DNA of 64,000 bases from Candidatus Heimdallarchaeum aukensis (GTDB lineage: Archaea > Asgardarchaeota > Heimdallarchaeia > Heimdallarchaeales > Heimdallarchaeaceae). Both the position numbers and the translations under genes were made by a program. Below, one piece after another: positions 2,884 to 63,693 of this stretch; within the stretch, counting starts at the first letter, position 1, and each line of letters starts with the position of its first letter. Below the pieces are notes generated by a model. The model was not told the DNA's origin, searched no databases, and saw only the letters and a program-made list of their open reading frames with translations. The DNA lies in NCBI GenBank assembly GCA_021513695.1, contig CP084166.1, forward strand, positions 384,001-448,000, written 5' to 3'.

Positions 2884-2917
2884 TTTTTTTACCTCATATG
2901 TATTTTAATTCGTTTGT

Positions 2918-15288: not shown

Positions 15289-16570
15289 GTGAAATTAGTG
15301 GTAAAAATAGCTCATATGTCTGATACTCATTTATCACATAGAAGAGTAAGAAATGTTAGAGATAGTTGGAAAGAAAGATATAGAGTAAGTTGGATAGAGA
15401 ATGACTTTTCATTAGCTTTTCAAAGAGCTTTAGATGCAGCTATTGAAACTAAATGTGATTTTCTAGTTCATTCAGGAGATTTGTTTGATGTTCCTGTAAA
15501 AAGAAATACAACTTCACCTTCTGAATATGCAAGAGCTATTGCAATAAGTGAAATAAGAAGATTTTTGGAAGCTACACATTTTAAAGTACCTATAATTATA
15601 ATTGATGGAAATCATGGAACTTATCTTTACAGGAATAATAGTACTATAGAATTCATAAAATCAGCTTTCCCTGAAAATGTGTTTATAGCCACAAATTATG
15701 ACCTTAAACGAGCAATAGTAAAAAATGAACCTTTGAAAGTAGAGTTTGAAGAGATTAACTTTTATCTGTTTCCTTATTTAGAATTCAAATCTATGGCTAA
15801 TTATGAAGAACTCTATGATGAATGGATAAGTAAATGCCAAGAGCCTGAAGACGGAAAAATTAATGTTGCAGTAGCTCACGGAATGTTTAGGAATTTGGAT
15901 TTGCATGAAAAATTATTCTCTTTTCCTTATGATTATGTAGCTTTAGGACACGATCACCAACAAAGAAAATATGCTCCAAACGCTTGGCAAGCAGGAAGTA
16001 CAGAAAAATATACCTTTGCTGAAAGAGGACAAGAAAAGTATTTTAGAAGTTATTATTGAGAAAGGAAAAAATTTACACATTAATCCAATAAAGGTTGTTA
16101 GCCAAAGAGAAATGAAACAATTCGAAGTAGAATTAAGTTCAGACATGAGTGCATTAACTGTAGAAGAAAAAATAAGAGAACTTGTAGCAAGTTATAGAAA
16201 GAACTTTGATGGAAACACAGCTGCGAGAATAAAAGTTAAGTTACAAGGAAAAACTTCTCTCTCCTACTGGTGGACAATAGAAGATCGTTTAGTAGAAATA
16301 CAGAAAAATGTTCTAACTGAAGAATATAACATCCTAGAATTTAGATGGGATGAAGAAGAGTTAAAGAAATCTATACCTCAAAGCCTAGCCAAAACACCAC
16401 AAATGGATCAATACCTAATTGAAGATCCAGTCAGGGATTTTGTAAATTATTTGAAAAACTTAGAAATAGATGATGAAGTAAAATTTGAACAATATGCAAA
16501 ACTAGGACCAGAAATAATTAAAGAGGTTTTTAGTGAAGGATTTATTTCTTCAAAGGAGGAGTTAGAATGA
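15289..16570 (+). pseudogene. mre11: Mre11 nuclease, copy 1, frameshifted
   Basis: Same sequence as the intact 427-aa copy, but caagaaaaaggtatttt is caagaaaagtatttt here (-2 bp). This splits the gene into the 15289-16059 and 15971-16570 ORFs. Phosphoesterase motifs HMSDTHL, GDLFD and GNHG are in the first part and GHDHQ is in the second. Confidence 0.65.
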
Positions 16571-18699: not shown

Positions 18700-18775
18700 T
18701 TCTTTTTTCATTATCTTTATCTTTTTTGAGAATAATATTTATATCTAAAAATGGAAATGTTCTCTAGGGTTTGAA

Positions 18776-24130: not shown

Positions 24131-24206
24131 TTCTTTTTTCATTATCTTTATCTTTTTTGAGAATAATATTTATATCTAAAAATGGAAATGTTCTCTAGGG
24201 TTTGAA

Positions 24207-34655: not shown

Positions 34656-37600
34656 TTAGTTCATGCTTTCTTTTAGATAAACCCAAGTATAACCCATTTG
34701 TTTTTGGACTATTTCTTCTGGTTTTCCTTCTGAGATTATGTACCCTCCTAGCTCTCCTCCTTCTAGACCTAAATCTATAACATAGTCTGCCTGTTTAATT
34801 AAATTCATTTCGTGATCAATTAGAACCACACTGTGTCCTTTATTTGCTAATCTATGAAGAATTTCAATAAGTTTTTCTAAATCAAAAAAGTGTAATCCTT
34901 GAGAAGGTTCATCTAGGATGTAAATACTATTTCCATAGGTTCTTTTAGATAGTTCTCTTACAATCTTTAATCTTTCAGCTTCTCCACCACTTATTGTTGT
35001 TGTTGGTTGTCCCATTTTCAAATAACCTAAACCTGCTTCAACAGCTAATTTTAATGGAGCACTTATTTTTTCTAGATCCCTAAATAACTCATATGCTTCT
35101 TCAATAGTCATCTCAAGAATATCAGAGATAGATTTTTGTTTGTACTTTACAGCTAGAACTTTTTTGTTATACCTTTTCCCCTTACAAATAGGACAAGTTA
35201 ACCATACATCAGATAAGAAAAGTAATTCTACCTTCTTTTGCCCTAATCCTTTACATTCTGGGCATTGTCCTTTTTTTACATTAAAACTAAAATGAGCAGA
35301 GCTCATTCCTCTGTTTCTTGATTCAGGTAGTTCAGCATAAAACTTTCTTATCTCGTCAAAAACTCCAAGATAAGTTGCTGGAGTTGAACGAACAGATTTA
35401 CTCATTGCAGATTGATCTACAGCAATAACTTTTTTGATATCTTCAAAACCTTTAATTTCTTTATGTTTTCCTGCTTCTATCTTCTTTTTAGAAATTTTTT
35501 TCTCTAAAGCTTTTTGTAAAGTATCTATAACCAAAGAAGATTTACCCGCACCTGATACTCCAGAAACAGCAGTAATAATTCCCTTTCCAAACTTTGCTGT
35601 AATATTTTTAAGATTATTTTCTTGTGCTCCTACTAAAGTTATATTTTCTGAAGTTTTTCTTCTTTTAGTAGGCGTTTTTATTTTTCTCTTGCCATAAATA
35701 TAGCTACCAGTAAGAGAAGATTCGCTTTTAAGAACCTCATTGGTTGAACCAAAGTTAATTATTTCTCCTCCTTCTTCTCCTCCCCTTGGTCCTAACTCAA
35801 TTATATAATCAGACTCTTTAATTATTGTATCGTCATGTTCTACTACTATTACGTGATTGCCATTTTCTTTTAATTTCTTCATGGTGTCTAATAGCCTGTT
35901 AATGTCTCTTGGATGTAAACCAATAGTGGGTTCGTCTAAGCAATAAGTTACCCCTATTAATCCACTTCCTATTTGAGAAGCTAAGCGTATTCTTTGTGCT
36001 TCTCCATTGGATAATGTACTTGCTCTTCGATCAAGAGTTAAATATTCTAACCCTACATCTACTAAATATTGAGCTCTTTTCTTTAATTCGGAAAGGATTC
36101 GCTCTGCTATTTTCGACCTTCTTTTATCTAATATTATATTATTCAGAAATACAAGAAAGTCTTTAACTGAATATTTTGTCAAATCTGTAATTGATTTGTT
36201 ATTAATTGTAATAGCTAAAACTTCTGGTTTAAGTTTTTCTCCCTTACAGTCGGGGCAAAGATACTCTGAATAATATTGGTTCATTTTTTCTTTATATTTA
36301 AGTGACCAAGTCGAATCTGTTTCAGATTTCATCCAATCATCCCAACGAGGAATTAATCCTTCCCAAGGTTTTTCTCTAATATACTCTGATACAGATTTAC
36401 GACTTTCTTGACGATAAACTATTTCTACTATTTCGCCATCTGAACCATAAAATAAAGCATGTAGTTGTTGAGGAGTAAAATCTTTTAGAGGAGTAGAGAG
36501 AGTGAAACCAAAGTGTTTTCCTACTGATTCTAACATACTTCGTCTCCAAGAGTTAGGATTACTCATTCTTTGTGCAGTATAAGGACCAATTGCTCCTTCA
36601 ATTATTGATTTATTCCAATCTGTAACTATCTTTCTAATATCAAATTTTCTGATCATTCCCAATCCTGTACAAGTTGGGCAAGCTCCTGAATAGTGATTAA
36701 AACTAAATAACCTTGGGTGAATCTCTTCTGGGACTTCAATTCCATGCTCTAAACATTCAGCATTGAATGAATACCTTTTTCCTTTTTTATCTGTAGAATA
36801 GACTTCTATTCTCCCTTTTCCAAGTTCTCTAGCTATTTCTAATGAATCAACAAATCTCGTATCTTCAACTTTTGATAAATCTATTCTATCAATCACAACT
36901 GAAAGTGTTTTAACATTATCAACACTAAACTCTTCATCTAAATGTAATAGTTTCTCATTTAGTAAAATCCTTGTATATCCTTCTTTCTTTAGTTCTTTTA
37001 CAATTTTAGATATATCTACTTGCTCTCCATTTAATACTGAAGCAGCAAGGTATATTTTCTTATCTTTGAACTCTTTTCTAATCAATTTTGCTATTTCTGT
37101 TTCTGTCCTTTGTTTTAATTCAATAGAACATTTAGGACAATGAGGAATACCTACTTTTGCAAAAAGAAGACGAAGATAATCATAAATTTCAGTAGTTGTG
37201 GCAACAGTGGAACGAGGATTATGTGAAATTGAATGTTGATCTATTGCAATTGAAGGAGTTAAGCCTACTATTTCTTCTACTTCTGTCCTTTCTGCCCGAT
37301 TTAGAAACTGTCTAGCATAACTGCTCAAACTTTCAATAAATCTTCTTTGCCCTTCAGCAAATAGTGTATCAATAACTAAACTACTTTTTCCACTACCAGA
37401 AACTCCAGTAACAACAACAAGATTATTTTTTGGAATAGTAAGATCAAGATTTTTTAGATTGTTCTTTTTTGCTCCTTTTACATAAAGAAAACTGCTTGGA
37501 TCTAATTCTTTATCTGATGTGGAAATAGAATTTTTACTTACTGTTTGCTCTTTTTCTAATTCTCTCTTTTCTCCTTCTAAAACCTTTTTTAGAGCTTGAC

Positions 37601-40620: not shown

Positions 40621-41511
40621 TTGTTGGTTATCTTTATGTTCATCTTTAAAAGAGTAAAAAGAAGAATTATTCTGAAAAGATTTTTTGTTACGCAAAACCA
40701 ACTATTAAGTGAATTTTTTGAAGAAACAGAGAAAGCATTGGGGAAAAAAATTACAATAATAGAATTTAATGAAGCCTTTAATCCAATAATAGAAAAATTA
40801 AATCAGATTATAGAAAACCATTCCAAAAGTAAAATCCTTAAAAAAACTATGAAAAAAAGATGGGCTAGGATTCTGTGGAGAAAGAAAGGAAAGGCTAAAG
40901 AAATTGAAAAGAGTCTTGTTAATATAACAGCAATTTTGGACAAATTAGATTTTTCAATTATTAATAATGATTTAGAAGAAATTGAATATTTATTAGAAGA
41001 TATAATAGAGATCGATTATGCATATGAAAAATTAAATAAATTAAAAAACGCAATAAATAGCTTCGATATTTTGTTAGAAAAAATGCTTTCAGTATTCAAC
41101 TTTTATGCAATACTAATTTCAAACGAGTCAATAAAAAATTTTGACAATTTAATAGTTAGAATTGAGAAAGATAGTTTAAGATGGAAAGCAGAAATAGATA
41201 CTTACGAAATATTAAAAGAAGCTATAGAAGAAAGAGCAGAACGAATAAACAGGCTTAAAGTATTTAATGATATGCTTGTTAAGAAAGAAAGTGTAAGCAT
41301 TACTGAAATGATGGACAAATTGGATTTTGAAAATAGAGAAAATCTAGAAAAATGGTTATTAGAAAATGTTCCTGCTAATACAATACTAATTAGCAGAGAG
41401 ATAATACAATTTAATAAAAATGTAAGTAAAAAAGAAATAGCTGAAGCAATAGATTCTTTGTTAAAAGATTACGAAAAATGGGTTAAGCAAGGAGTAGGAA
41501 AAAAAACCTAA
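40621..41511 (+). CDS. hypothetical protein, member of the local family with a shared C-terminal module
   Basis: C-terminal FENRENLEKWLLENV...KKEIAEAIDSLLKDYEKWVKQGVGKKT* aligns with the 28351 and 29131 products. Confidence 0.5.
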   Translation: MLVIFMFIFKRVKRRIILKRFFVTQNQLLSEFFEETEKALGKKITIIEFNEAFNPIIEKLNQIIENHSKSKILKKTMKKRWARILWRKKGKAKEIEKSLVNITAILDKLDFSIINNDLEEIEYLLEDIIEIDYAYEKLNKLKNAINSFDILLEKMLSVFNFYAILISNESIKNFDNLIVRIEKDSLRWKAEIDTYEILKEAIEERAERINRLKVFNDMLVKKESVSITEMMDKLDFENRENLEKWLLENVPANTILISREIIQFNKNVSKKEIAEAIDSLLKDYEKWVKQGVGKKT

Positions 41512-47394: not shown

Positions 47395-49251
47395 TTAATA
47401 TTTCTTTCCACAGATATCAATTTCTTCAAAAGTTTCCTTAACTTTATTTTTCTTTTGTTTTGTTCTGAAGATAATTTCAAATAAAACAATTGAAAAAATG
47501 AAAATCATCCAAACTATACTTTTACTGATAATTTCTTTTCTTCTAGTAATACCTATGTTTGAATTAGGATCTAATGGGTCAAAATCATTCATTACTTCTT
47601 CATAATCAGTATATGAATCTCCATCTGTATCAGGATCGTTGGGATCAGTATTATAAAATTTTACTTCTTCAAAATCGTCCAATCCATCAAAGTCACTATC
47701 TATGCGTAAAGGATTAGTATGGTAAATAAATAATTCTTCATAATCATCTAGTAAGTCACCATCTGTATCACGATTTAGGGGACTAGTATTGTAATTATTT
47801 ACTTCTTCTCCGTCTTTTAATCCATCATTATCAGAATCACTATCATTGGGGTCAGTATCGTACATGTAAATTTCAAGATTATCAGACAAACCATCCAAAT
47901 CTGAATCTTTTAATGTAGGATTTGTTCCATAAACAAATACTTCTACTCCATCATCTATTCCATCATTATCTGAATCATCATTTGTAGGATCTGTTCCATA
48001 AGCGTATATTTCATCACCATCTAATAATCCATCAAAGTCAGTATCATTATTCCTTGGATCAGTATTGTTTTCAAATTCGTGAATATTATATAATTCATCA
48101 TTATCAAAGTCAACATAGGCATCAATTGGATTAGCAACATCTAAACCATAGTAATATTCCCAGTAATTTGTCATTCCATCGCTGTCTAAATCTCCATCAG
48201 CATCGCTTGGATCATCAGGATCTAATCCTACACTAACTTCCCAGTAATCAGGCATTTTATCGTTATCACTATCTCTTACTAGTTTTATGATAAAAGCATC
48301 AATATATCCTTCCAAAGTGGAATTTAAAGGGCTTTTTAAAAGAAGATCATTACTCTCTGTACTCCCTACTATGTAGATAGAACCATCACTATCCACTGCT
48401 ATATCTCTACCTACATCTTCTTCTCTTCCACCAAAATATGTGCTAAAAACTAAATTTGTTCCACTTCTGTTTAACATAGAAACAAAAATATCGGAATAAT
48501 AAGTAGGATTTCTTTCTTCAATTGCATTTTTAATCGGAAAATCATTGCTCCATGTTCCACCTGTTAAATAGACGTTTTGATCATTATCTACCGTTATTGA
48601 CAAACAAGTATCATTTGATGAACCACCTAAAAATGTACTATAGATTATATTATCAGCTGTTGAACTTATTTTTGTTAAAAATATGTTAGAATATCCATTT
48701 AGTGTGTCATCAAAGGCATTTTTTGTTGGAAAGTCAGTACTATTTGTAACACCAGTGATATATACATAACCTTCACTATCAATAGTTATTCCTCTGGCAT
48801 AATCATTATACTTTCCCCCTAAATAAGTGCTAAAGATTAACCCATTTCCTGTAGAGTTAATATAGGATAAATAAACATCAAAAAAGCTTCCACCACCATA
48901 AGTAGAATTAAAAGCATTTACAGTCGGAAAATCATCACTTCTTGTAGATCCAGTAATGAAAATAGAACCATTAGAGAAAACTTTACCTTTAGCAAAGTAT
49001 TCAGCATCACTTCCCCCTATTATTGTGGTGAAAATAGGTTCAAGAGTTTCTCCATCAAGTTTAGTAACAAAAGCATCATAATCATCATCTGAAATATTTC
49101 CAAAAGCAAAGTTGTTGAATAAAGAAGTGCTCATAGTATCTCCAAAAATGTATATATTTCCATCATTTCCTATTTCTATCTTGCGTCCATAATCAAAAAT
49201 ATCCCCGCTTAAATAAGAACTAAAATCTACTAAATAAGGATCAATAATCAA
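47395..49251 (-). CDS. SBBP beta-propeller-repeat / thrombospondin-type-3-like Ca-binding surface protein, C-terminal part (after an in-frame TAA)
   Basis: Repeated ...GG..D.A.GI..D..G..YITG.T.S.DFP... (SBBP) units, then more than ten DxDxDGxxDxxE repeats, then a C-terminal TM helix. The track start is TTG. Confidence 0.6.
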   Translation of the reverse strand: MIIDPYLVDFSSYLSGDIFDYGRKIEIGNDGNIYIFGDTMSTSLFNNFAFGNISDDDYDAFVTKLDGETLEPIFTTIIGGSDAEYFAKGKVFSNGSIFITGSTRSDDFPTVNAFNSTYGGGSFFDVYLSYINSTGNGLIFSTYLGGKYNDYARGITIDSEGYVYITGVTNSTDFPTKNAFDDTLNGYSNIFLTKISSTADNIIYSTFLGGSSNDTCLSITVDNDQNVYLTGGTWSNDFPIKNAIEERNPTYYSDIFVSMLNRSGTNLVFSTYFGGREEDVGRDIAVDSDGSIYIVGSTESNDLLLKSPLNSTLEGYIDAFIIKLVRDSDNDKMPDYWEVSVGLDPDDPSDADGDLDSDGMTNYWEYYYGLDVANPIDAYVDFDNDELYNIHEFENNTDPRNNDTDFDGLLDGDEIYAYGTDPTNDDSDNDGIDDGVEVFVYGTNPTLKDSDLDGLSDNLEIYMYDTDPNDSDSDNDGLKDGEEVNNYNTSPLNRDTDGDLLDDYEELFIYHTNPLRIDSDFDGLDDFEEVKFYNTDPNDPDTDGDSYTDYEEVMNDFDPLDPNSNIGITRRKEIISKSIVWMIFIFSIVLFEIIFRTKQKKNKVKETFEEIDICGKKY

Positions 49252-49335: not shown

Positions 49336-50067
49336 TTAAAAAACTTTTAAGTTTCTATCATTAAAAATTCTATATTCTGTATTTCCGATTCTTGAGATTC
49401 CAACTATATTAGTTTCATCTTCTTGTTTTAAGTAAAACTTTGAATCTGATGATAGTTGAACCTTAATAACTGAAGGATCAGCGTTTGGTTCAACAATAAA
49501 TTCGTATTTCAGAAATGAACCTGTAAAATAGTATCTTAAAGATATTCCGGGGTATATATCTTCATATATTATTTCTTGATAACAGCTTATTTGAGTAATT
49601 GCTTTATCTTTGTAAAAAAAGTTAGAATAGTAATTTGCTAATGCTTTTGCCTGTGGTACAACGATATTTGAATCAGGAAAAGAGACATTAATTAAGAAAA
49701 ATTTAGTATTTTCTTCTTTATTCGGTTTAAGATTCTGAATAAAGTAGACCTTAGATTCTCCAAAGTAAACATTTGTTAAAGGAGATTGAGCATAATAAAA
49801 AACTGTCTTGTCAAATATATGCCCTTTATTTTTCATAAAAAAGTATTTAGAATTGTAATCACTGACATAGTTCTCTTCAATTTCGCCGGAAACACTGTAA
49901 AAATTAATTTTTGCTTTATTTTGCTGTTGTGAATATTTTATGCTGTAAGAGCCAACTAAAGTGTTATTTTTGACATAAAATCCAGATAAACTGCTCACAC
50001 TTACAAGAAAGATTAAAAACAAACAAACAATAAATGAAACATTTCCTTTGCTTTGATTTTCATTCAT
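49336..50067 (-). CDS. N-terminal part of the same surface protein (signal peptide plus N-domain)
   Basis: Signal peptide MNENQSKGNVSFIVCLFLIFLVSVSS. Same reading frame as 47395-49251, separated only by TAA (49336-49338) and 28 sense codons that already show SBBP-like sequence (YFTLDDNCYIFNIEQYDTAKK). Confidence 0.55.
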   Translation of the reverse strand: MNENQSKGNVSFIVCLFLIFLVSVSSLSGFYVKNNTLVGSYSIKYSQQQNKAKINFYSVSGEIEENYVSDYNSKYFFMKNKGHIFDKTVFYYAQSPLTNVYFGESKVYFIQNLKPNKEENTKFFLINVSFPDSNIVVPQAKALANYYSNFFYKDKAITQISCYQEIIYEDIYPGISLRYYFTGSFLKYEFIVEPNADPSVIKVQLSSDSKFYLKQEDETNIVGISRIGNTEYRIFNDRNLKVF

Positions 50068-53211: not shown

Positions 53212-54174
53212 ATGAGCTCTTCAGATTTTGCTGTAGAAACCAATAGGTTAACAAAAGATTATGGATCATTAAGGGCAGTAAATGAAATTGATCTATCTAT
53301 TGAAAAATCAGAAATTTTTGGTTTGCTTGGTCCAAACGGTGCAGGAAAAACTACTACCATCAGGCTTCTTTCTGGAATGCTAACACCTACTTTTGGAAAA
53401 GCTAAAGTTTTAGGTATGGATTCTGTGGAAAAATCCCTCCAAATCAGAGAAAAAACAGGATTACTGACTGAAACCCCTTCGATTTATGACAGATTAACTG
53501 TTAGAGAAAACCTTACTTTCTTTGGTAGAATATATGGAGTTAAAACTGATTCCTTGAGAAAGAACATTGATAAATTGTTGGATATTTTTGATTTAGAGGA
53601 GAAAATAGATACAAAGGCAGGTACCTTATCAAAGGGTATGCGACAGAAAGTAGCAATAGCAAGAACACTTATTCATGATCCTGAACTCATATTTCTTGAT
53701 GAACCTACAGCTTCTCTTGCTCCTGAATCAGCTAAAGTTGTTAGAGATCTAATCCTTAATTTAGCAAAGGAGAGTAAAAAAACTTTCTTTATTGCAACAC
53801 ACAACCTCTATGAAGCTGAAATACTTTGTGATAGAGTAGCAATTATAAACAGAGGAAAAATTCTTGCAGTAGGAAAGCCTAAAGAACTCAAAGAAATGAT
53901 GAAGGGAGAAACATATACGATTATTAAATTCCAAGAATGGAACAAGGAAATAGAAAACTTTCTTGAAGCACATAATTACAAGATAAGTAATCTTGCCAAA
54001 GAAGAAAGAAAAATACACATAAAATTAAAGGACATTGAAAAAGAAACACCAGCTTTAATTAAAAAATTAATTGAGAATAATTACAACATTGTAGAAGTTT
54101 TCCACGAGAGACCTTCTTTAGAAAAGATCTATCTTGAACTAATAGAAAAAGAATCAAATGGAGGATTGAATTAG
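53212..54174 (+). CDS. ABC transporter ATP-binding protein
   Basis: Walker A GPNGAGKTT, signature LSKGMRQKVAIA and Walker B IFLDEPT. Confidence 0.9.
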   Translation: MSSSDFAVETNRLTKDYGSLRAVNEIDLSIEKSEIFGLLGPNGAGKTTTIRLLSGMLTPTFGKAKVLGMDSVEKSLQIREKTGLLTETPSIYDRLTVRENLTFFGRIYGVKTDSLRKNIDKLLDIFDLEEKIDTKAGTLSKGMRQKVAIARTLIHDPELIFLDEPTASLAPESAKVVRDLILNLAKESKKTFFIATHNLYEAEILCDRVAIINRGKILAVGKPKELKEMMKGETYTIIKFQEWNKEIENFLEAHNYKISNLAKEERKIHIKLKDIEKETPALIKKLIENNYNIVEVFHERPSLEKIYLELIEKESNGGLN

Positions 54175-54990
54175 ATGAGATGGGATAGAATTTGGGCTTT
54201 AGCTAAAAAAGATATTAAAGATTATACTAAATCTAAATATGTTTTCTTTACAATTATCTTCATGCCATTATTTCTTTCTCTTATAATGGCAATATCAGGT
54301 GTTTTACCACTAGTTAGTATTCCTGAAGATGAGGTCGATGAAGATGATTTTGCTTCTATCGATAATATTGTAGCAAATGTGGTAAAAGGCTGGAATGACT
54401 TTAATCCCAAACAGAAAATGCTAATTATTAGTGCTTATGGGATGCTATTCTTTGTTGCTCTCATACCAATAATTATACCGTCAATAATAGCTTCGGAAAC
54501 AATAGTAGGCGAAAAAGAAAGGAAAACAATGGAAGGATTAATTGCGTCTCCTCTCAGCGAAGGAGAGATAGTAGTAGGAAAAATAGTTTCTGCTTTTCTA
54601 CCCTCAATTATAGGAACAATTGTTGCTTCAATTGTTTATGCGGTAAGTGTTGATATTATGCTATATCGTGAGATAGGAAGACTTCTCTTTCCAGATCCTT
54701 TGATTATTTTATTTACATTCGTTATCAGCCCCATAACAACTATCCTTTGCGTAGAACTGATGATAATGATTTCAACAAAGATGTCAAGTGTAAGAGATGC
54801 CTATCAAATTGGTTCGCTTGTAGTTATGCCTGTGTTCTTCTTTGTTTTTCTTCAGATGGTGACCTTCTTCTTTTCAAGTTTATTATCAATACTAGCAGGA
54901 ACTACAATACTTATCCTATCTACAATTTTCTTCTACAAGCTTGCAGAGAATATTTTTGACAGAGAAAAAGCATTGGTAAAATTAGTTTGA
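54175..54990 (+). CDS. ABC-2 type transporter permease
   Basis: Start overlaps the ATPase stop (ttagATGa). Six hydrophobic helices. Confidence 0.65.
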   Translation: MRWDRIWALAKKDIKDYTKSKYVFFTIIFMPLFLSLIMAISGVLPLVSIPEDEVDEDDFASIDNIVANVVKGWNDFNPKQKMLIISAYGMLFFVALIPIIIPSIIASETIVGEKERKTMEGLIASPLSEGEIVVGKIVSAFLPSIIGTIVASIVYAVSVDIMLYREIGRLLFPDPLIILFTFVISPITTILCVELMIMISTKMSSVRDAYQIGSLVVMPVFFFVFLQMVTFFFSSLLSILAGTTILILSTIFFYKLAENIFDREKALVKLV

Positions 54991-55063
54991 TTTTCTTTTC
55001 TCTTTTTTATTTTTATTTTCAGAAAAATTTTTATTAAATATATAAGGATATAATTGAAGGGGT

Positions 55064-57118
55064 TTGAACAGAGCAAAAAAAATAGTACCTTTAGCTATAA
55101 TATTTGTTCAAATAATTCTTTTTACTAGCTTACAGTATAGTTCCGTCAATGCAGATGAGATTCAGTATAACGTAATTGGAATAAACATCAATTCCGATAG
55201 TGATTTTATTGATTTTGCAAGGACAGGAGCAGGAACTAAAGAAGATCCCTACATAATTTCAGGGTATCACTTTGAGTACTATGAAATTGGGATATTTATT
55301 TCACAAACAAGTAAATATGTCATAATAACTAACTGTTCTTTTTCTAACATCAAATATGAAGCAATAAGATTGTGGTCTGTCAAATCTGGAACAGTAAGAA
55401 TAGAAAACAATACGATTGTTAATGCAAAAGTGGGAATATTCCTATATGAAGCTCCAGATTGTACAATAATAAGTAATAAAATAATGAACTGTTCTGCTTT
55501 TGCAATTAAAGATGATTTTTCTAGAATAGGATCAAAAATTATGAACAATACACTTTATAACAACGAAGAAGGAATAACCATAAGTGAAACTAATTACACT
55601 CAAATACTGAATAATTACATAATTTACAGTAGAAATGTTGGCATTTATTTAATGGATACCACAAATGGAACAGAAATACATCATAACTTCTTCTTAAATG
55701 CTAACAAACCTGCTTTTACAACAGCTTGTAGTTATGGATATTATAATAATTGGACATCAAATTATTGGAGTGATTGGGATGGTTCAAGTCCATATAAAAT
55801 AGAGAGTAAATATGAACAAACTTTTGACACAAATCCTTTAAGTTTCGATGACTCTGATGGAGACAAAATAATCGATATTTTAGAACTTGTTATGGATATG
55901 AATCCAGAATCAACCGACAACGACTCTGATGAAATTTCAGATTATGATGAATTACTTATTTATGCAACAAACCCTAATACAATAGATACAGATGAAGATG
56001 GAATAACAGATTATGATGAAATATTTGTATATTTAACAAATCCGAATACACAAGATACAGATAAAGATGGAATAACAGATTATGATGAAGTATTTGTATA
56101 TCATACAGATCCGAATAAAAAAGACTCAGATGGTGATACCTTTTCAGATTATGAAGAAATATTACAGAAAACCAATCCTAGGAAAAGTTATAGTAATCCA
56201 ATTACAAAAAAATATTTGACAATCTTTCTTCCAATTTTTTCAGGTTTATTTGGTGTTGCATTTCTTTCAACTAGATATTACTCTAACTCAAAGAAAAACA
56301 AAATTAAGGTAATCTTTGACACATGGAATGAATTTTTCAATGAATGGGAAAAAATAATTGAACAGATAAATAAATCAGGAAATTCAGAAATAGAAGAAAT
56401 AATCTTTGAGGTAAATCAGTTAAAAGAAAAAAAAGTAGATGAGCTTGAATTTGTCAAAAAAATAGTAGCTCAATCAAAGAAACTACTTATAGAACATATG
56501 AAATTCAACGTTGAATTAAGTTTACAAAAATACAAAAAGCAAATAGAAATTTTTGTTAACCTACAGAGTAATTTGATTGATAAAGCTTTAATTACCCTTA
56601 ATCAAATAACAGAAAATACAATTCTTAATGCTGTAAAAGATTATTTGTGGATGAGATTCGTTTATTTGTATAGTACTACTAGCAAATCAGAAGCAATTAC
56701 CACTATTGAAGATGTGAGTGGAGATGCACTTTTTAACAAGTTCATTAAATTTTATAGATCTTTAGATTATGAGGAAAGACTGAAAAAAGAAATATCCAAC
56801 TTAGCAGAAGAAGTAAAATTTCAGATAAATCAAGCAAAAAAATATGAAATTGAGCTTATAGAAAGTTCAATAAACTCTATTATTGATTCTCTATTTGATA
56901 AATTTAATAAACTTGAGATCGATATAAATATTCTTCAAGAAAAAATCAAGGATATAAACATCGCTCAGATTAAACTAGATAATCCTTCCGAAACTTTTGT
57001 TAGAATCGAAAATATAGTAAAAGAAGAAGTGAACATACAAATGAAAGATAAAGAAGAGTCTATTCAGTCTAATCTTTTCTCTAATCAAGAAAAAGGGTTA
57101 AAGAATCCGCGTGAATAG
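55064..57118 (+). CDS. receptor-like type-I membrane protein: beta-helix plus TSP3-like Ca-binding repeats, TM, cytoplasmic coiled-coil domain
   Basis: Signal peptide. Parallel beta-helix-like repeats (NNTIVNAKVGIFLYEAPDCTIISNKIMNC...). Three or four D-x-D-x-DGxxDYDE repeats. TM helix YLTIFLPIFSGLFGVAFLS. About 290-aa cytoplasmic domain conserved with the next gene. TTG start with GGGG SD. Confidence 0.6.
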   Translation: MNRAKKIVPLAIIFVQIILFTSLQYSSVNADEIQYNVIGININSDSDFIDFARTGAGTKEDPYIISGYHFEYYEIGIFISQTSKYVIITNCSFSNIKYEAIRLWSVKSGTVRIENNTIVNAKVGIFLYEAPDCTIISNKIMNCSAFAIKDDFSRIGSKIMNNTLYNNEEGITISETNYTQILNNYIIYSRNVGIYLMDTTNGTEIHHNFFLNANKPAFTTACSYGYYNNWTSNYWSDWDGSSPYKIESKYEQTFDTNPLSFDDSDGDKIIDILELVMDMNPESTDNDSDEISDYDELLIYATNPNTIDTDEDGITDYDEIFVYLTNPNTQDTDKDGITDYDEVFVYHTDPNKKDSDGDTFSDYEEILQKTNPRKSYSNPITKKYLTIFLPIFSGLFGVAFLSTRYYSNSKKNKIKVIFDTWNEFFNEWEKIIEQINKSGNSEIEEIIFEVNQLKEKKVDELEFVKKIVAQSKKLLIEHMKFNVELSLQKYKKQIEIFVNLQSNLIDKALITLNQITENTILNAVKDYLWMRFVYLYSTTSKSEAITTIEDVSGDALFNKFIKFYRSLDYEERLKKEISNLAEEVKFQINQAKKYEIELIESSINSIIDSLFDKFNKLEIDINILQEKIKDINIAQIKLDNPSETFVRIENIVKEEVNIQMKDKEESIQSNLFSNQEKGLKNPRE

Positions 57119-57302
57119 CTTTATTTCTCTTTTATAGTTGATACTTTTATTACAATGAACTTACTCACAATCTCTCTCCAAAAATATGAAATATAATCTT
57201 TCTTCCTAATGAATCAAACATTATTTATAATCTAATTTCACTTTTCTTTTTTCAATTTTAGAAAAATTTTTATTAAAGGTACAAAGATATGATTGAAGGG
57301 GT

Positions 57303-59288
57303 TTGAAAATAAAAAAGTCAAAATCTAATCTGTTAGTTTTGTTTTTAATATTGTTCTTTACTAGTTCTACCTATTTTCATATAAAAGCAGATGATAATAC
57401 AAAATCAGGTTTTGCAATTCAAATCTCTTCTAACGATGAATTTTCTTTATTTTCAAAAGCAGGTAACGGAACTAAAGAAAATCCCTATGTTATCTCAGGA
57501 TATATCATTGAACACTTCGAAGCAGGTATTTTTATATCTCAAACAACCAAATTTTTCGTTATTACTAATTGTACTTTTCTTAATCTAAAATATGAAGCCA
57601 TACGAATAATGACAGTAGATGTTGGTAATGTTAGAATAGAAAATAATACGATTATTAATACAAAGTTTGGAATTTATATATATCAAGCTCCAAAAAGTAT
57701 TATTGTAAATAACAAAATCGTTAATTGCACTGTATCAGGAATAAGAGACGAATTTTCAGGAATAGGTTCTAAAATTGAAAACAACACTCTTTACAACAAT
57801 GAAGAAGCTATTACAATTTATTCAACAAATTATACTCAAATATTAAATAATTATATAATCAAAAGTCGGAAAGCTGGCATATTTCTATTGTGGAAACCAA
57901 ATGGAACAGAAATACATTATAACTTTATTCTAAACTCAGTAAAACCTTATATTGCAACTGCTCACAACGAAGGATTCAATAATAATTGGACATCAAATTA
58001 TTGGAATGACTGGAATGGAACAGGAGATTATCAAATAAGTAGCATTTATGAAACAACATTTGATAAAAATCCTTTGAGTTTTAATGACACTGATGGAGAT
58101 AAAATAATTGATATTTTGGAACTTGTAATGAATACAGATCCTTATGTGGTAGATAGCGACAATGACGGAATTGATGACTATAATGAATTGCTTAATTATG
58201 CAACAAACCCTAATGCCCAAGACAGTGATGGAGATGGAATATCTGATTATGACGAAATAATTGTATATACAACAAATCCCAATGCACAAGACACTGATGG
58301 AGATGGAATAACAGATTATGATGAAGTATTTGTTTATGGAACTGATGCAAAGAAACGAGATACTGATGGCGATACTTTTTCTGATTATGAAGAAATATTA
58401 ATGAAAACTAACCCTAAAAAAAGTTACAGTAATCCTATTATTAGAAGATATCTAACCATCTTAATTCCTACTTTTTCAGGAGTACTTGTTATTGCAGCTT
58501 TTTCAACTAGATACTATACCAACTCAAGGAGAAACAAAATTAAGGTGATTTTTGAAACATGGAATGAATTTTTCACTGAGTGGGAGAAAATAATTGAGCA
58601 GATAAACAATACAAAAAATTCAGAAGTTGAAGAAATAATATTTGAGGTAAAGGAACTTAAAAATAAGAAAATTGACGAACTTGAGCTTGTAAAGAAAATA
58701 ATCAGTCAAGCTAAAAAATTACTTATCAATCATATGAAGTTCAATGTTGAATTAAGCTTACAAAGATATAAAAAGCAAGCTGAAATTGTAATTAATCTAC
58801 AGAATAACTTAATTAGCCAAGCATTAACTGCTCTTAATCAAATAACAAAGAATACAATACTAAACGCTGTAAAAGATTACTTGTGGATGAGATTTGTTTA
58901 TCTATATAGCACAACAGAAAAATCTGAAGCCATAACTACTATTGAAGATATAAGTGGAGACACTCTTTTTAACAAGTTTGTCAAATTTTACAAATCATTA
59001 GATTATGAAGAGAGATTGAAAGAAGAAGTTGCTCATTTGGCAGAAGAAATCAAATATCAAATAAGAAAAGCCAAAGATTATGAAATTGATCTTTTAGAGA
59101 GTTCAATAAATTCAATTATAGACTCTTTACTTGATAAGTTTAACAAGCTTGAAGTTGATATTAATTTTCTTGAAGAAAAAATAAAAGACATTAGTGTTGA
59201 ACAGTCCAAGATCGATAATCCAAAAGATGCCTTCTTAAAAATAGAAAAAATAGTTAAAGAAGAAGTGAAAGAACAAAAAAGCAATTAA
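57303..59288 (+). CDS. receptor-like type-I membrane protein, tandem paralog of the previous gene
   Basis: Same architecture. The cytoplasmic domain is about 75% identical and the 5' UTR / start region is also conserved (aattgaaggggtttgaa). Confidence 0.6.
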   Translation: MKIKKSKSNLLVLFLILFFTSSTYFHIKADDNTKSGFAIQISSNDEFSLFSKAGNGTKENPYVISGYIIEHFEAGIFISQTTKFFVITNCTFLNLKYEAIRIMTVDVGNVRIENNTIINTKFGIYIYQAPKSIIVNNKIVNCTVSGIRDEFSGIGSKIENNTLYNNEEAITIYSTNYTQILNNYIIKSRKAGIFLLWKPNGTEIHYNFILNSVKPYIATAHNEGFNNNWTSNYWNDWNGTGDYQISSIYETTFDKNPLSFNDTDGDKIIDILELVMNTDPYVVDSDNDGIDDYNELLNYATNPNAQDSDGDGISDYDEIIVYTTNPNAQDTDGDGITDYDEVFVYGTDAKKRDTDGDTFSDYEEILMKTNPKKSYSNPIIRRYLTILIPTFSGVLVIAAFSTRYYTNSRRNKIKVIFETWNEFFTEWEKIIEQINNTKNSEVEEIIFEVKELKNKKIDELELVKKIISQAKKLLINHMKFNVELSLQRYKKQAEIVINLQNNLISQALTALNQITKNTILNAVKDYLWMRFVYLYSTTEKSEAITTIEDISGDTLFNKFVKFYKSLDYEERLKEEVAHLAEEIKYQIRKAKDYEIDLLESSINSIIDSLLDKFNKLEVDINFLEEKIKDISVEQSKIDNPKDAFLKIEKIVKEEVKEQKSN

Positions 59289-59295
59289 AAAGTTT

Positions 59296-60411
59296 CTAAT
59301 GTATCCTTAGATTAGGTGGAATAAGGTTTAGAACTCCACAGGCTGGACATTCTATTACTCCATTTTCGTTCATGTCTTTTAGATCTAAGAGTTCTCCACA
59401 ATTCCCTGCACAATACATGGGAATTAATTCTGGTCCTTCCTTTACTCCTTCAATTGCACTATTAATCTTTGGAATAACTTCTTTGTAGAGCCTTTCGTGT
59501 ATTTGATCCACTTCATAACCGTAGACCCATATAGCTATATTTCCACTTTTTTCTTTTCCTGTGATTATAAGTTCAACTATAGAAATATCTTTTTTTCCGA
59601 TTTGGGAGACAAACATCAGGTTTCCAATGAAATTTTCACTTGTATCCATTACTATCTGTTCGTTCACTGTTTTATAAGAATCAAATAAGGTTTTTAAAAC
59701 TTTAAAAGCGACTTTTGGCTTTGCATGGAATTCTATTGATCTTCCTAATGAATCGAGCTTGTTGTTCTTTAATTCCATTAAAGCTTCATAATAACCATTT
59801 TCTATTCTTTCTTTAAGTATTAAAGCTCGTTCCTCTCTTTTTTTGTAAGCTTCATAGATTAGTTCTGTAAATTCAGCTTGTTTTTTCTTAACTATTGTAA
59901 ATTTCGTTCCTTCATGTATCTTTACAGGGGGAAAAGGCAAGCTACCTATTATTTGAGACTGAACAATATATGGTTCTCTTAAAGTTGAAGGAACAATAAA
60001 GCTTAACGAAGTACCGTAATCGATTATTTTTCCAATGTTTCCCTCTCTTACTATTGAACTCCAATCTCCTCCAGGAATTGTAACTGTATCTGGAACAGCC
60101 AAAAACACAACATCTGCTCTCGGGGGAGCAGAAGATATTAAAGCTGTTACTTCTTCTCCATCACCTATTTCTCCTGCAATTCTTTTGTCCAAGTATATTA
60201 AAGGATTTTTTCCTTTTTTTACTATCTCATTGATTTCAGCAAAAACTGAACTAGTCCTTCCAATTGTAGAAGAAAAGAGAAGAGCATATTTTTCATCATC
60301 TGCAAGTTCTAATTCAGTATCTTCTGGTAAAACTATACCTATACCGTTTCTAAAAACTAGTTTAACTTTACATGTAACCGTTTTCACATTCCTCTCTAAG
60401 AAAATCCTCAC
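59296..60411 (-). CDS. hypothetical protein with C-terminal zinc ribbon
   Basis: C-terminal CAGNCGELLD...CPACG four-Cys ribbon. No other motif recognised. Confidence 0.45.
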   Translation of the reverse strand: MRIFLERNVKTVTCKVKLVFRNGIGIVLPEDTELELADDEKYALLFSSTIGRTSSVFAEINEIVKKGKNPLIYLDKRIAGEIGDGEEVTALISSAPPRADVVFLAVPDTVTIPGGDWSSIVREGNIGKIIDYGTSLSFIVPSTLREPYIVQSQIIGSLPFPPVKIHEGTKFTIVKKKQAEFTELIYEAYKKREERALILKERIENGYYEALMELKNNKLDSLGRSIEFHAKPKVAFKVLKTLFDSYKTVNEQIVMDTSENFIGNLMFVSQIGKKDISIVELIITGKEKSGNIAIWVYGYEVDQIHERLYKEVIPKINSAIEGVKEGPELIPMYCAGNCGELLDLKDMNENGVIECPACGVLNLIPPNLRIH

Positions 60412-61702: not shown

Positions 61703-62755
61703 ATGATGAGTAAACAAAAAAACAAAAAAACAAATAACACAGAAGTATACAAGAAAATTTTTCAGACGGCTCAAGATTCAATTTTTTTGCTTAATAAGAA
61801 TAATGTCTTTATAGATTGCAATCCTTATACTTGTGATATGTTTAATTGTGAGAAAGAAGATATTATTGGAACAACCCCAGTTGAATGGTCTCCTGAACTA
61901 CAGTTTGATGAAGTTCCTTCAGAAAAAAAGGCTAAACAATATATAAACAAAGCCTTTTCTGGAACACCTCAACGCTTTGAGTGGATTCACAAAAAAAAGA
62001 CAGGAGAATTATTTTATTGCGAAGTTTCTCTTAATAAGGTTGTAATAGATGGAGAAGATTTTTTACAAGCAATAGTACGTGAGATAACAGAAAAAAAATT
62101 TATTGAAGAAGTTGATTTAATATTCTCAAAAATAATTGACCATGATACCAGAAATATAGCCTTTGCAACTACTTCATACATCAATCTAATTCGAAATAAC
62201 TTTGAAGTAAATGAAAAACTAGATAATTATCTTAAAAGAATAGAAGATAATTTAGAAGAATTAATGAGTATTATAAATAAATTTTCAATTTTACATGAAG
62301 TCATGTATGAAACAAAAAAGCAAGTAATAAACCTTTATGAGACTGTTTGCAAAAGCATTCAACTTTTTGAAGAGAAATTAGGAGAAAAAAAAGTTGTAGT
62401 TGAAAACAAGATTAACAAAAATCACAAAGTAATTGCGGGGAATTTATTGATTGAAGTAATTAACAATTTAATAAGTAATTCCCTTCGGCACGCAAATGCT
62501 AATAAAGTTTTAATAAAAAGCAAAGAAACTCCAGAAAAAATAATTCTTGTTTTTGCAGATGATGGAAAAGGTTTTGACGAAAATTTATTACCTAATTTAT
62601 TTAAAGAAGGAATAAAAGGTCGTGATTCAAAAGGATCTGGTCTCGGTTTATATATTTCTAAAAAAATAATTAATTTATATGAAGGACATATTTCAGCAAG
62701 AAATGCAAGTAAAGGCGGAGCTGAATTTATTATTGAATTAGAAAAAGCAGATTGA
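61703..62755 (+). CDS. cytoplasmic PAS-domain sensor histidine kinase
   Basis: N-terminal PAS-like region. H-box IIDHDTRN. HATPase N/G boxes NLISNSLRHAN, DDGKGFDE and GSGLGLYISKKII. Confidence 0.7.
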   Translation: MMSKQKNKKTNNTEVYKKIFQTAQDSIFLLNKNNVFIDCNPYTCDMFNCEKEDIIGTTPVEWSPELQFDEVPSEKKAKQYINKAFSGTPQRFEWIHKKKTGELFYCEVSLNKVVIDGEDFLQAIVREITEKKFIEEVDLIFSKIIDHDTRNIAFATTSYINLIRNNFEVNEKLDNYLKRIEDNLEELMSIINKFSILHEVMYETKKQVINLYETVCKSIQLFEEKLGEKKVVVENKINKNHKVIAGNLLIEVINNLISNSLRHANANKVLIKSKETPEKIILVFADDGKGFDENLLPNLFKEGIKGRDSKGSGLGLYISKKIINLYEGHISARNASKGGAEFIIELEKAD

Positions 62756-62829: not shown

Positions 62830-63693
62830 GTGAAAGATATGAATGATAAAAAAAGATACTTAAGGTTAAAGAATTTAAAAGAATTTGGAGTAGATATTAC
62901 TTGGGAAAATCTTTTTTCAAAAACCGTTTTATTTGCAGGAGTAGGTGGAGTAGGAAGTATTGCTGCTGAAATGTTTGCTCGATGTGGAATAGGAAAAATG
63001 ATTTTGATAGACTTAGATATTGTAGAAGAAGTAAATTTAAACAGACTATTTTATACTCAGGAAAATATAGGAAAGCCAAAAGTAGAAGTAGCAAAAGAAA
63101 TTTTAACAAAAATTAATAGAGACGTGGAAATTGAAACATATCATTCTGATATCTGTGCAATCGATTTTGAAGAAAAATTTGAACAATTGATAAAAGAATC
63201 AGATTTAGTTATTTCTAGTTTAGACAATATACCTGCAAGATTATATATTAATGAAAAATGCGTTCAACTAAGAAAAGAGTATATCGATTCAGGAGCAAGC
63301 AGATCAGGTTTAGGAGGATATGTTCATTTAGTTATTCCATTTAAAACTGCTTGCTATCAATGTACAGGTTCAATAGATTTAGGAGAAAAAAAGCATGGAG
63401 AACCATGTACTGCTTCTTTACCTTCTACAATAGCTATTATAGCTTCACTCACAGTGGAAATTGCACTTAAACATTTGTTAAATTTTGGAGTGATTCCTGA
63501 TTATATCGGTTTTAACGCTTTGACCGACCAGTATATAATACAAAAGATGAATAGAGATCCTTCATGTTATATATGTGGAGAAAGAAAAACGAATCTAAAA
63601 GAGCAGAGGAAATCTTTGCAAGAAATTGATGAATTAACGGAAGGAAAAACTGTAGATGAGTTAATTCAAAATTTGGATTCTCATGAGAAGTAG
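62830..63693 (+). CDS. E1-like ThiF/MoeB-family adenylyltransferase
   Basis: Nucleotide-binding GVGGVGSIAAEMFARCGIGKMILIDLD. Two CxxC pairs (CYQCTG and CYICGE), as in the MoeB/E1 zinc site. Confidence 0.85.
   Translation: MKDMNDKKRYLRLKNLKEFGVDITWENLFSKTVLFAGVGGVGSIAAEMFARCGIGKMILIDLDIVEEVNLNRLFYTQENIGKPKVEVAKEILTKINRDVEIETYHSDICAIDFEEKFEQLIKESDLVISSLDNIPARLYINEKCVQLRKEYIDSGASRSGLGGYVHLVIPFKTACYQCTGSIDLGEKKHGEPCTASLPSTIAIIASLTVEIALKHLLNFGVIPDYIGFNALTDQYIIQKMNRDPSCYICGERKTNLKEQRKSLQEIDELTEGKTVDELIQNLDSHEK

Follow-up and report, generated by a model that had tools for sequence, protein, structure and literature searches.

The right-handed β-helix fold of the CASH/NosD type is characteristic of proteins that bind or process glycans, and archaeal surface proteins with a C-terminal transmembrane (TM) anchor normally have few cytoplasmic residues. 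Described proteins that resemble the pair analyzed here include AlgG, a mannuronan C5-epimerase (PDB 4nk8; CASH/PbH1), bacterial TSP3 surface/adhesion proteins (PF18884), and, by NCBIfam naming, the gliding-motility and cell-cohesion proteins CglD and MtsD. Canonical NosD carries a His-Met-Met transient copper-binding motif, and non-canonical NosD-like proteins have been argued to serve adhesion (PMC13452462). Here, we describe two adjacent genes, A and B, in a 64-kb stretch of DNA (hereafter the window) from Candidatus Heimdallarchaeum aukensis, whose genus has been described as a member of the clade of Asgard archaea nearest to eukaryotes (PMC8813620). Both genes are predicted to encode type I single-pass surface proteins with an unusually large cytoplasmic tail (Table 1).

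Table 1. Genes, domains and upstream elements at the A/B locus (positions in the window)
Feature	Position	Protein extent	Strand	Basis or remark
Separate surface protein	47395..49251	20-aa tail	−	SBBP beta-propeller, 10 TSP3 motifs, C-terminal TM
DrrA/ABCA-type ABC ATPase, directly upstream	53212..54174		+	Pfam ABC_tran plus DrrA1-3_C; NCBIfam drrA 297 bits
ABC-2 permease	54175..54990		+	Pfam ABC2_membrane_2; PDB 7o0y_D (NosY)
A, promoter-like 5′ block	55021..55063		+	AGAAAAATTTTTATTAAA (TATA/BRE-like), 32 nt on ATTGAAGGGGTTTGAA running into TTG start
Gene A	55064..57118	684 aa	+	ORF, TTG start
A, signal peptide		aa 1-30		Cleavage between …SVNA and DE
A, NosD/CASH-type right-handed β-helix head	55238..55783	about aa 59-240	+	Pfam NosD E 1.2e-16, Beta_helix E 4.4e-15
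A, five TSP3-type Ca-binding repeats (stalk)	55850..56158	aa 263-365	+	TSP3_bac E 3e-9; motifs at aa 263, 285, 308, 331, 354
A, single TM helix, then RYYSNSKKNKIK	56210..56272	aa 383-403	+	Kyte-Doolittle scan
A, cytoplasmic all-helical domain (predicted topology)	56273..57115	aa 404-684	+	76% identical to B
B, promoter-like 5′ block	57260..57302		+	Duplicate of block before A
Gene B	57303..59288	661 aa	+	ORF, TTG start
B, signal peptide		aa 1-29		Cleavage between …HIKA and DD
B, NosD/CASH-type β-helix head	57474..58019	about aa 58-239	+	Pfam Beta_helix E 1.5e-16, NosD E 2.6e-13
B, five TSP3-type Ca-binding repeats	58086..58394	aa 262-364	+	TSP3_bac E 6.1e-14; motif matches
B, single TM helix, then RYYTNSRRNKIK	58437..58508	aa 379-402	+	Kyte-Doolittle scan
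B, cytoplasmic helical domain (predicted topology)	58509..59285	aa 403-661	+	Predicted structure, invariant motifs
Convergent gene	59296..60411	371 aa	−	C-terminal zinc-ribbon-like CxxxC…CxxC

A and B, both intact in this genome, share 438 of 639 aligned residues (69%; BLASTP, 0 gaps, E = 0), with identity ranging from 28% in the signal peptide to 54% in the TM helix, 60% in the β-helix, 75% in the TSP3 region, and 76% in the cytoplasmic region, for which the preliminary description had given ~75%. The similarity extends upstream of the coding regions. Specifically, the 18-mer AGAAAAATTTTTATTAAA occurs exactly twice in the 64-kb window (55021 and 57260), as does the 16-mer ATTGAAGGGGTTTGAA (55053 and 57292), and the two are identically spaced upstream of both TTG codons. 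This block, which may function as a promoter, is kept in PR6 and L001 and partly in L006 and L007 (with ATG in place of TTG). The conservation of the 5′ regions, TTG start included, thus holds, and the tandem duplication proposed earlier is supported, with the promoter-like block as part of the duplicated unit.

The same Pfam families were found in both proteins, namely NosD (E 1e-13 to 1e-16), Beta_helix (E 1e-15 to 1e-16), and TSP3_bac. ORFs, BLASTP, Pfam, and the hydrophobicity scan agree with the initial view of adjacent paralogs with a signal peptide, a β-helix, calcium-binding repeats, and one TM helix, although two figures changed: the tail, put at ~290 aa, measures 281 aa in A and 259 aa in B, and the repeats, counted as three or four, number five per protein by the motif D-x-[DNS]-x-[DN]-x3-[DN]-x2-E (spacing 22-23 residues; by eye, four canonical and one degenerate). 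Both proteins match PF18884 (tandem D-x-D-x-D-G-x-x-D-x-x-E repeats), and calcium binding by these repeats is putative. Such repeats had also been noted in the surface protein at 47395-49251; this is correct, except that the gene lies on the minus strand, and the protein has the TSP3-stalk/TM-anchor module in common with A and B but lacks their cytoplasmic domain.

All rule-based indicators of topology place the C-terminal domain inside the cell. Both proteins begin with a signal-peptide-like hydrophobic segment (basic n-region, V/I at −3, A at −1), and the 15 residues directly after the TM helix include five K+R and no acidic residue. In comparison, the ectodomain is acidic (D+E 52-60 vs K+R 24-25), harbors all Cys residues, and is built from domain types (β-helix, TSP3) of kinds known as extracytoplasmic. 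N-x-S/T sequons number 8-10 outside, where about 6 are expected, and 1 inside, where 2-3 are expected. By these sequence rules, A and B have the cleavable signal peptide, single TM helix, and positive-inside flank of type I proteins, in support of the proposed layout with the β-helix and TSP3 repeats outside and the helical domain inside. An inverted or non-membrane topology with an extracellular helical domain, or ORFs that are annotation artefacts, would be in line with the TTG starts of both genes, but this is highly improbable and already disfavoured: all topology indicators speak against it, the corresponding start codon is ATG in the L006 and L007 orthologs, every region has a dN/dS well under 1, and orthologs are kept in several independent assemblies.

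The tail had been left unassigned, and indeed no relatives were found in Pfam, NCBIfam, or PDB, with no Pfam family C-terminal of the TM helix in A or B. An AlphaFold2 model of the B tail (6-sequence alignment; pLDDT 64, pTM 0.33) predicts a β-α-β unit, a helix of ~88 residues, a short insert, a helix of ~62 residues, and a terminal helix. The earlier label of a coiled-coil domain is thus accurate as to helices but finds no heptad support: the power at period 3.5 did not exceed that of shuffles in helices 45-132 and 163-224, the best hydrophobic periods of the long helices are 3.7-3.9, and a canonical coiled coil is not supported. Fold searches returned generic hairpins and helix bundles of the sort found in oligomerisation modules, and Foldseek gave no significant match (E at least 0.23, TM-score at most 0.33), so that the likeness of the model to chemoreceptors (3g6b, 1qu7, 2ch7), SMC arms, and SH3BP5 hairpins is one of shape only. 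Although these three soluble/cytoplasmic chemoreceptor domains were the top Foldseek matches, an MCP signalling domain was rejected as the identity of the tail, with no Pfam match (MCPsignal) even at E = 10, a best Foldseek E of 0.23, and TM-scores of 0.25-0.29.

Conservation of the tail is nevertheless not limited to low-complexity coiled coil. Across members 27-36% identical, 39 positions are invariant, including two Trp and three Phe, and the motifs W22, IIFE, LQ..L...AL, KD.LW (KD[YF]LW), and KF are unchanged down to 27% identity. Because dN/dS is low (0.08 between paralogs and 0.13 between orthologs), the aromatic motifs are invariant, and no internal repeats were found, the tail is, on sequence grounds, a genuine domain and a new unannotated family.

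When 1.84 billion representative proteins were searched exhaustively, three clusters carrying the tail were recovered, all with the same signal peptide, β-helix, TSP3 repeats, TM helix, and tail. Fusion of the tail to another ectodomain, a possibility raised in the preliminary description, was seen in none of the family members found among these representatives. The best contexts of the clusters are Heimdallarchaeum or Heimdallarchaeaceae, and the very small family to which the tandem paralogs A and B belong has so far been seen on no other type of contig. The closest parallel in layout is a 1,198-aa Heimdallarchaeaceae protein (L011) with a signal peptide, a NosD/β-helix region, eight TSP3 repeats, a TM helix, and a 296-aa cytoplasmic tail, although that tail has no detectable homology to the A/B tail (hhalign E 0.18). 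Since this second, unrelated tail type occurs in another Heimdallarchaeaceae genome, the β-helix/TSP3/TM layout recurs in the lineage. The last 90 residues of the L011 tail are related to a window ORF at 40621-41511 (pairwise E 4e-5).

The locus is dynamic and subject to recombination. In the closed PR6 genome, where one family locus was found, A and B are represented by a single A-head/B-tail chimera with the crossover in the TSP3 repeat region, and copy A is frameshifted in two further assemblies. The B-type tail is intact in every assembly, the PR6 chimera included. The between-species dS of the B β-helix is 0.04, versus about 0.7 in flanking genes, and head segments look to have been exchanged between species recently.

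Next to these family members, the described systems share only parts with A and B. AlgG is the best solved sequence relative of the head (family profile, E 2.9e-9), which also matches the parallel β-helix repeat model TIGR03804; however, identity is low and confined to the repeat scaffold, and A and B, unlike AlgG, are predicted to be membrane-anchored type I proteins with a cytoplasmic domain. The tandem 23-residue calcium-binding repeats recall bacterial TSP3 surface proteins, but the CglD and MtsD models match the repeat region only (23-37 bits vs cut-offs of 400 and 800), and the remaining architecture is unrelated. For NosD, the Pfam scores (PF05048; A, 61.3 bits; B, 50.3 bits) exceed the gathering cut-off of 23.6, and the family profile matches the solved structure (7o0y_A, E 1.2e-7). 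In contrast, the NCBIfam NosD model TIGR04247 reaches no more than 30-34 bits (cut-off 300), the β-helix match spans about 180 aa versus a NosD chain of 436 aa, and after it come the TSP3 stalk, TM helix, and 255-aa cytoplasmic domain. An identity of A and B as canonical NosD is not supported: besides the low TIGR04247 score, the invariant columns of five-member ectodomain sequence alignments contain no His or Met, and no Nos proteins occur among the neighbours scanned (about 46.2-63.7 kb), which thus do not form a nosZ/nosL/nosR context. These neighbours comprise an ArsR-type HTH protein, a luciferase-like oxidoreductase, the ABC pair, a 371-aa orphan, a PAS histidine kinase, ThiF, and proteins of no family. 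The 371-aa orphan has no Pfam, NCBIfam, or PDB match, is 93% identical in L001/L003 and 66% in L005/L006, and falls into eight clusters found only on Heimdallarchaeaceae-type contigs (the two named ones being Heimdallarchaeaceae). PADLOC anti-phage models matched neither A, B, the permease, nor this orphan.

We tentatively regard A and B as most likely being lineage-specific type I adhesins or receptors of the cell surface, equipped with a new cytoplasmic domain. In the proposed model, a Sec-type signal peptide would export the CASH/NosD-type head, which, on an acidic five-repeat TSP3 stalk stiffened by calcium, would engage an extracellular glycan or partner surface. One TM helix would join the stalk to an all-α cytoplasmic domain of ~255 aa with two very long helices, which may oligomerise and/or bind an intracellular partner, and the surface module would thereby be physically coupled to the cell interior. 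The type of ligand, oligomerisation, and any coupling or signalling are proposals, and because neither profile nor fold searches revealed a recognisable signalling or output domain in the tail, the receptor role is one that we infer.

The ABC genes directly upstream, which the preliminary description did not mention, suggest another role, in which A and B would be extracytoplasmic β-helix partners of the ABC-2 transporter. As in NosD-NosF-NosY, ATP hydrolysis would be relayed through the permease to the β-helix protein for work outside the cell, e.g., handing over or processing a surface substrate; the partner would be held at the membrane by a TM helix of its own, with a cytoplasmic domain that could touch the C-terminal regulatory domain of the ATPase. 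We consider this rather unlikely, despite several points in its favor. The ATPase, permease, and receptor genes are co-stranded with a 73-nt gap, and the ABC pair adjoins the receptor gene in L001, L003, and the distant L006 (receptor 39%, ABC proteins 68-72% identical; a different gene upstream of the pair). Two lineages show the transporter directly upstream. The ectodomain lies above the Pfam NosD threshold, the closed PR6 genome yielded only one locus, and NosY (7o0y_D) is the only significant PDB match of the permease. However, that match is weak, at 21.8-23.4 bits (E 1.2e-3 for the permease sequence by itself, 3.1e-4 for a profile), and the ATPase is a generic DrrA/ABCA-type NBD, nearest to ABCA NBDs (242 bits) and 4yer (204 bits) with drrA as its best NCBIfam match, whereas NosF ranks only ~54th (126 bits). 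No ABC genes lie within 2-6 kb of the most distant family member (P0006; L007-L010), A and B each possess their own promoter-like block, duplicated along with the gene, and a 28%-identical permease homolog on a high-GC bacterial contig has no β-helix neighbour. The lack of an invariant His or Met in the family β-helix, in which the His-Met-Met site is not conserved, also weighs against this role. To our knowledge, TM helix and cytoplasmic domain are both absent from canonical NosD.

A and B may instead be passive surface proteins, i.e., ordinary cell-envelope adhesins, glycan lyases/hydrolases, or structural components of the envelope, whose cytoplasmic helices only anchor or multimerise the protein and transmit neither information nor force across the membrane. 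The generic hairpins and bundles returned by fold searches would suit this role, numerous β-helix proteins occur in these genomes, and other surface proteins with a TSP3-stalk/TM anchor (47395-49251 in the window; L003 867-3923) make do with tails of 19-20 aa. Moreover, at least one of the copies seems dispensable, as two assemblies have a disrupted copy A and another has it fused. Yet a ~255-aa domain under such purifying selection and with invariant aromatic motifs goes far beyond the needs of an anchor, the B-type tail has stayed intact throughout, and a simple coiled-coil multimeriser would be expected to show the heptad periodicity that is missing here, which makes a purely passive role unlikely.

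A bolder extension of the adhesin or receptor reading, which we consider improbable, is that the tail is an Asgard-specific cytoplasmic adaptor. It would make a glycan- and calcium-dependent adhesin an outside-in receptor, one that links contact outside the cell (e.g., with a mineral surface or a syntrophic partner) to machinery within, for instance the cytoskeleton or the ubiquitin-like/ESCRT system nearby. The position of the L011 protein, with the same layout and an unrelated tail, inside a ubiquitin/ESCRT gene cluster is compatible with this idea. If true, the archaeal lineage closest to eukaryotes would have, in A and B, a prokaryotic counterpart to the type I adhesion receptors of eukaryotes. 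If A and B were instead tethered NosD-like partners of an ABC-2 transporter, the NosDFY principle would extend beyond copper-enzyme maturation.

The locus is a clear small-scale case of surface-gene dynamics, with duplication, unequal crossover within repeats, and apparent between-species head exchange. The tail defines a new domain family, absent from all curated family and structure libraries searched, which could be added to databases. This conserved domain of ~255 aa, which sits behind a β-helix/TSP3 ectodomain and within the genus is under strong purifying selection, is extremely rare among public sequences, and if the tail couples the surface to the interior, these proteins would be candidates for sensing or holding partners and substrates.

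Alignment of the proteins encoded by A and B, the tandem paralogous genes under study, was gapless over 639 residues, with 69% identity. Specifically, identity was 28% in the signal-peptide region, 60% in the beta-helix (the head), 75% in the TSP3 region, 54% in the TM segment and 76% in the C-terminal cytoplasmic domain (the tail), the last value matching the ~75% given in the preliminary description. Pfam assigned residues ~59 to 240 of both proteins to NosD and Beta_helix and the acidic repeats that follow to TSP3_bac, with no family found C-terminal of the TM helix, while NCBIfam added just a parallel beta-helix repeat model and sub-threshold CglD/MtsD matches in the TSP3 parts. The calcium-binding repeats described previously are present, but number five per protein rather than three or four, counted as matches to D-x-[DNS]-x-[DN]-x3-[DN]-x2-E, spaced 22 to 23 residues apart. 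Upstream, AGAAAAATTTTTATTAAA and ATTGAAGGGGTTTGAA each occur twice in the whole window (G+C of ~30%), before A and before B, at an identical distance of 32 nt from each other, in promoter-like blocks that include TTTTTATTAAA boxes and run into the TTG codons. This arrangement corroborates the proposed conservation of the 5′ regions, including the TTG start, and, together with the gapless alignment, the origin of A and B by tandem duplication. The block is retained in L001, a comparison locus, and in the closed PR6 chromosome (L003), and partly in distant orthologs with ATG at the equivalent start; we infer that it would serve as an archaeal promoter of the TATA/BRE type, the leader being very short.

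Coordinates of the features described in the text (window positions unless a locus is given)
Feature	Position	Strand	Description
A	55064-57118	same as B	684 aa, TTG start
B	57303-59288	same as A	661 aa, TTG start
Beta-helix core of A	55300-55780		dS vs L001/L003
Beta-helix core of B	57540-58020		dS vs L001/L003
g371	59296-60411	-	371-aa orphan, downstream, convergent; C-terminal CxxxC…CxxC
PAS histidine kinase	61703-62755	+	near g371
ThiF (E1-like) gene	62830-63693	+	near g371
ATPase repeat, first copy	16567-20146	+	710-aa ATPase and 456-aa ORF
ATPase repeat, second copy	22001-25577	+	710-aa ATPase and 456-aa ORF
UvrA-like ORF	34656-40445	-	1929 aa
L011-tail-like ORF	40621-41511	+	296 aa
SBBP surface protein	47395-49251	-	10 TSP3 motifs
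DUF7948 protein	49336-50067	-	hydrophobic N-terminus
PR6 chimera	L003 8783-10771 (CP084167.1, ~525.3-527.3 kb)		A-head/B-tail
PR6 counterpart of SBBP protein	L003 867-3923		1018 aa
L002 copy A	86-2033		107-nt deletion
L001 copy A	1904-3816		97-nt deletion
L002 copy B	2218-4197		mosaic
L011 protein	L011 1156-4752 (GCA_023705905.1, BPTK01000014.1)	-	1198 aa

TSP3 motifs also occur in the window in an SBBP beta-propeller surface protein with a TM anchor, whose ORF as listed begins without a hydrophobic segment. The DUF7948 gene adjoins it upstream on the same strand, and the PR6 counterpart is a single protein; the two ORFs may be pieces of a single gene.

Membrane topology was assessed with rule-based sequence indicators. 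Both N-termini combine a basic n-region with a hydrophobic core and a V/I-x-A motif (SVNA followed by DE in A, HIKA followed by DD in B), and each protein has one internal hydrophobic segment, followed within 15 residues by five K/R and no acidic residues. Domain types familiar from extracytoplasmic proteins make up the N-terminal part, which is strongly acidic (D+E of 52 to 60 vs K+R of 24 to 25) and contains all of the Cys residues. N-x-S/T sequons number 8 to 10 outside vs 1 inside (expected: ~6 and 2 to 3, respectively), a difference that is mostly compositional. All of these indicators point to an N-out, C-in orientation and agree with the cytoplasmic placement proposed for the conserved C-terminal domain; its location outside the cell was thus not borne out, and an inverted topology or an artefact is a highly improbable explanation.

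Next to the ectodomain parts, with a dN/dS of ~0.2 between A and B, the tail has a value of 0.08 (0.13 between orthologs). Across the depth of the family, conservation of the tail (25 to 36%) lies below that of the ectodomain (31 to 41%). In an alignment with some members at only 27 to 36% identity, 39 of 256 tail positions do not vary among B, P0005 and P0006, the three that diverge most; the invariant motifs include W22, IIFE(40-43), LQxxLxxxAL, KD[YF]LW(119-123) and KF. The long tail helices lack a 3.5-residue periodicity (best periods, 3.7 to 3.9), no internal repeats were found in the tail and its sequence is just slightly less complex than that of the ectodomain, indicating, together with the invariant motifs, that conservation is not confined to low-complexity coiled coil. 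The conserved cytoplasmic helical domain of the preliminary description therefore stands, but its coiled-coil label is not supported. An AlphaFold2 model of the tail from a six-sequence alignment was of moderate quality (pLDDT 64, pTM 0.33) and predicted a beta-alpha-beta unit next to the membrane, then helices of 88 and 62 residues separated by a short insert, and a terminal helix; a single-sequence model of full-length B was discarded (pLDDT 35).

The tail had no credible match in Pfam, NCBIfam, PADLOC or PDB sequences. A DAD3 match (21 bits, E-value of 1e-3) to a single K/E/I/L-rich helix was rejected as compositional. A published description of the family was not found in the literature searched, and the sole named homolog is called "hypothetical protein" by NCBI. 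The tail is a real, undescribed domain family, the ectodomain modules are well known, and their combination is a new variation on the archaeal TM-anchored surface-protein theme.

A tail-only search of 5.8 billion clusters recovered three proteins, two of them A and B fragments in near-identical assemblies, and HMMER, run exhaustively with a profile against 1.84 billion representatives, recovered three clusters, all with the same layout (signal peptide, beta-helix, TSP3, TM and tail). In genome scans, the family also turned up in the closed chromosome of Ca. Heimdallarchaeum endolithica PR6, with a single locus found, and in one uncultured archaeon MAG. The family is thus tiny, and the taxon-named contigs that carry it belong to Heimdallarchaeum or Heimdallarchaeaceae. 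The tail was not found in viral contigs, a metagenome pattern scan for it returned nothing, and neither the window nor any fetched locus contained a further occurrence. Fusion of the tail to other ectodomains, a possibility raised earlier, was not encountered among the protein clusters, in the window or in the fetched loci, and the architecture is fixed.

The same layout with an unrelated tail was observed in the L011 protein, which comprises a signal peptide, NosD/beta-helix, eight TSP3 repeats, a TM segment and a 296-aa cytoplasmic tail; its gene has an EAP30 (ESCRT-II-like) gene on one side and, on the other, a set of ubiquitin-like system genes (87-aa/JAB/ThiF). The L011-tail-like ORF of the window has just a 9-residue hydrophobic stub (MLVIFMFIF) and KRVKRR ahead of a helical domain and matches neither Pfam nor NCBIfam. 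Its last ~90 residues match the end of the L011 tail at the same positions (pairwise BLASTP E-value of 4e-5, 27% identity; "…AIDSLLKDYEKWVKQGVGKKT" vs "…AIDDLLEQFSNWEETGTGKKK"), and the ORF appears to be a relative, lacking an ectodomain, of this second receptor-tail family. Remote homology of either to the A/B tail was not significant (hhalign E-value of 0.18 to 0.27).

Synonymous divergence from PR6 of ~0.7 in the adjoining ABC and g371 genes indicates that the window comes from a congener of a different species; its identity is about 80 to 90% to PR6 and 95 to 99% to L002, a Heimdallarchaeaceae MAG. P0005 is equidistant from A (39.5%) and B (39.3%), and L001 has orthologs of both, which places the duplication after the split of the distant L006 lineage and before that of the window and PR6; A-B dS is saturated (0.8 to 1.7). 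PR6 has one gene here, a chimera whose 5′ ~900 nt are 99 to 100% identical to L001 copy A and whose 3′ ~900 nt are 97 to 100% identical to L001 copy B, with the switch within the TSP3 repeats, reflecting either unequal crossover or assembly collapse. Copy A carries out-of-frame deletions at the beta-helix/TSP3 junction in L002 and L001, and an intact copy B or B-type tail is present everywhere. Such variation in copy number and integrity reflects either genuine recombination and decay or errors in the assembly of repeats. Between-species dS of the beta-helix cores is 0.04 for B and 0.17 to 0.21 for A, low in comparison with the flanking genes (~0.7) and the rest of A and B (0.4 to 0.6), which suggests that the head segment recently passed between co-occurring Heimdallarchaeum species by homologous exchange. 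L002 copy B is also a mosaic, with 99% identity to B of the window in the ectodomain and 85% in the cytoplasmic domain.

A second tandem duplication in the window, apparently very recent, involves an AAA_23/SMC_N-type ATPase (709 of 710 aligned positions identical), with a 456-aa ORF after each copy and no Pfam match for the first of these ORFs; the repeat could be genuine or an artefact of assembly. The UvrA-like ORF resembles, by eye, two UvrA proteins joined head to tail, i.e., a duplicated double-ABC ATPase with zinc-finger-like motifs.

Downstream of B, the orphan gene g371 (93% identity in L001/L003 and 66% in L005/L006) forms eight clusters, including two named Heimdallarchaeaceae, and was seen on Heimdallarchaeaceae-type contigs alone. 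Elsewhere, its orthologs adjoin ThiF/JAB/EAP30 genes or, in L014, a DrrA-like ABC ATPase.

Directly upstream of A, after a 73-nt gap, lie genes for a DrrA-type ABC ATPase and an ABC-2 permease, an adjacency retained in L001, L003 and distant L006, where the ABC proteins are 68 to 72% identical, the receptor just 39%, and a different gene precedes the pair. Among solved structures, the sole relative of the permease is NosY (E-value of 1.2e-3; 3.1e-4 with a profile), and the head profile matches AlgG (2.9e-9) and NosD of the 7o0y complex (1.2e-7). A NosDFY-like partnership, with A and B as tethered NosD-like partners of the adjacent transporter, is therefore a serious rival, albeit a rather unlikely one: the most distant member (P0006) lacks ABC neighbors, A and B each have their own promoter-like block, the ATPase shows no specific likeness to NosF, the head has no invariant His or Met and the permease homolog in a bacterium has no beta-helix neighbor. 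Canonical NosD carries a His-Met-Met site (PMC13452462), and motif, gene context and ATPase led us to reject canonical NosD/NosDFY membership. A permease-profile metagenome scan, a narrow test of co-occurrence, returned just two short contigs resembling PR6 and a bacterial locus that is unrelated.

That A and B are passive surface proteins whose tail is a mere anchor seems less probable still. The sequence evidence supports lineage-specific type I surface proteins with a glycan-type beta-helix head, a calcium-binding-type stalk and, in the cytoplasm, a new domain under constraint. Tentatively, and at somewhat short of even chances, we favor an adhesin or receptor with the head outside the cell on the TSP3 stalk and a tail that would oligomerize and/or bind a partner inside it. 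The family is both real and rare, has a dynamic evolutionary history and occurs in an organism of high interest.
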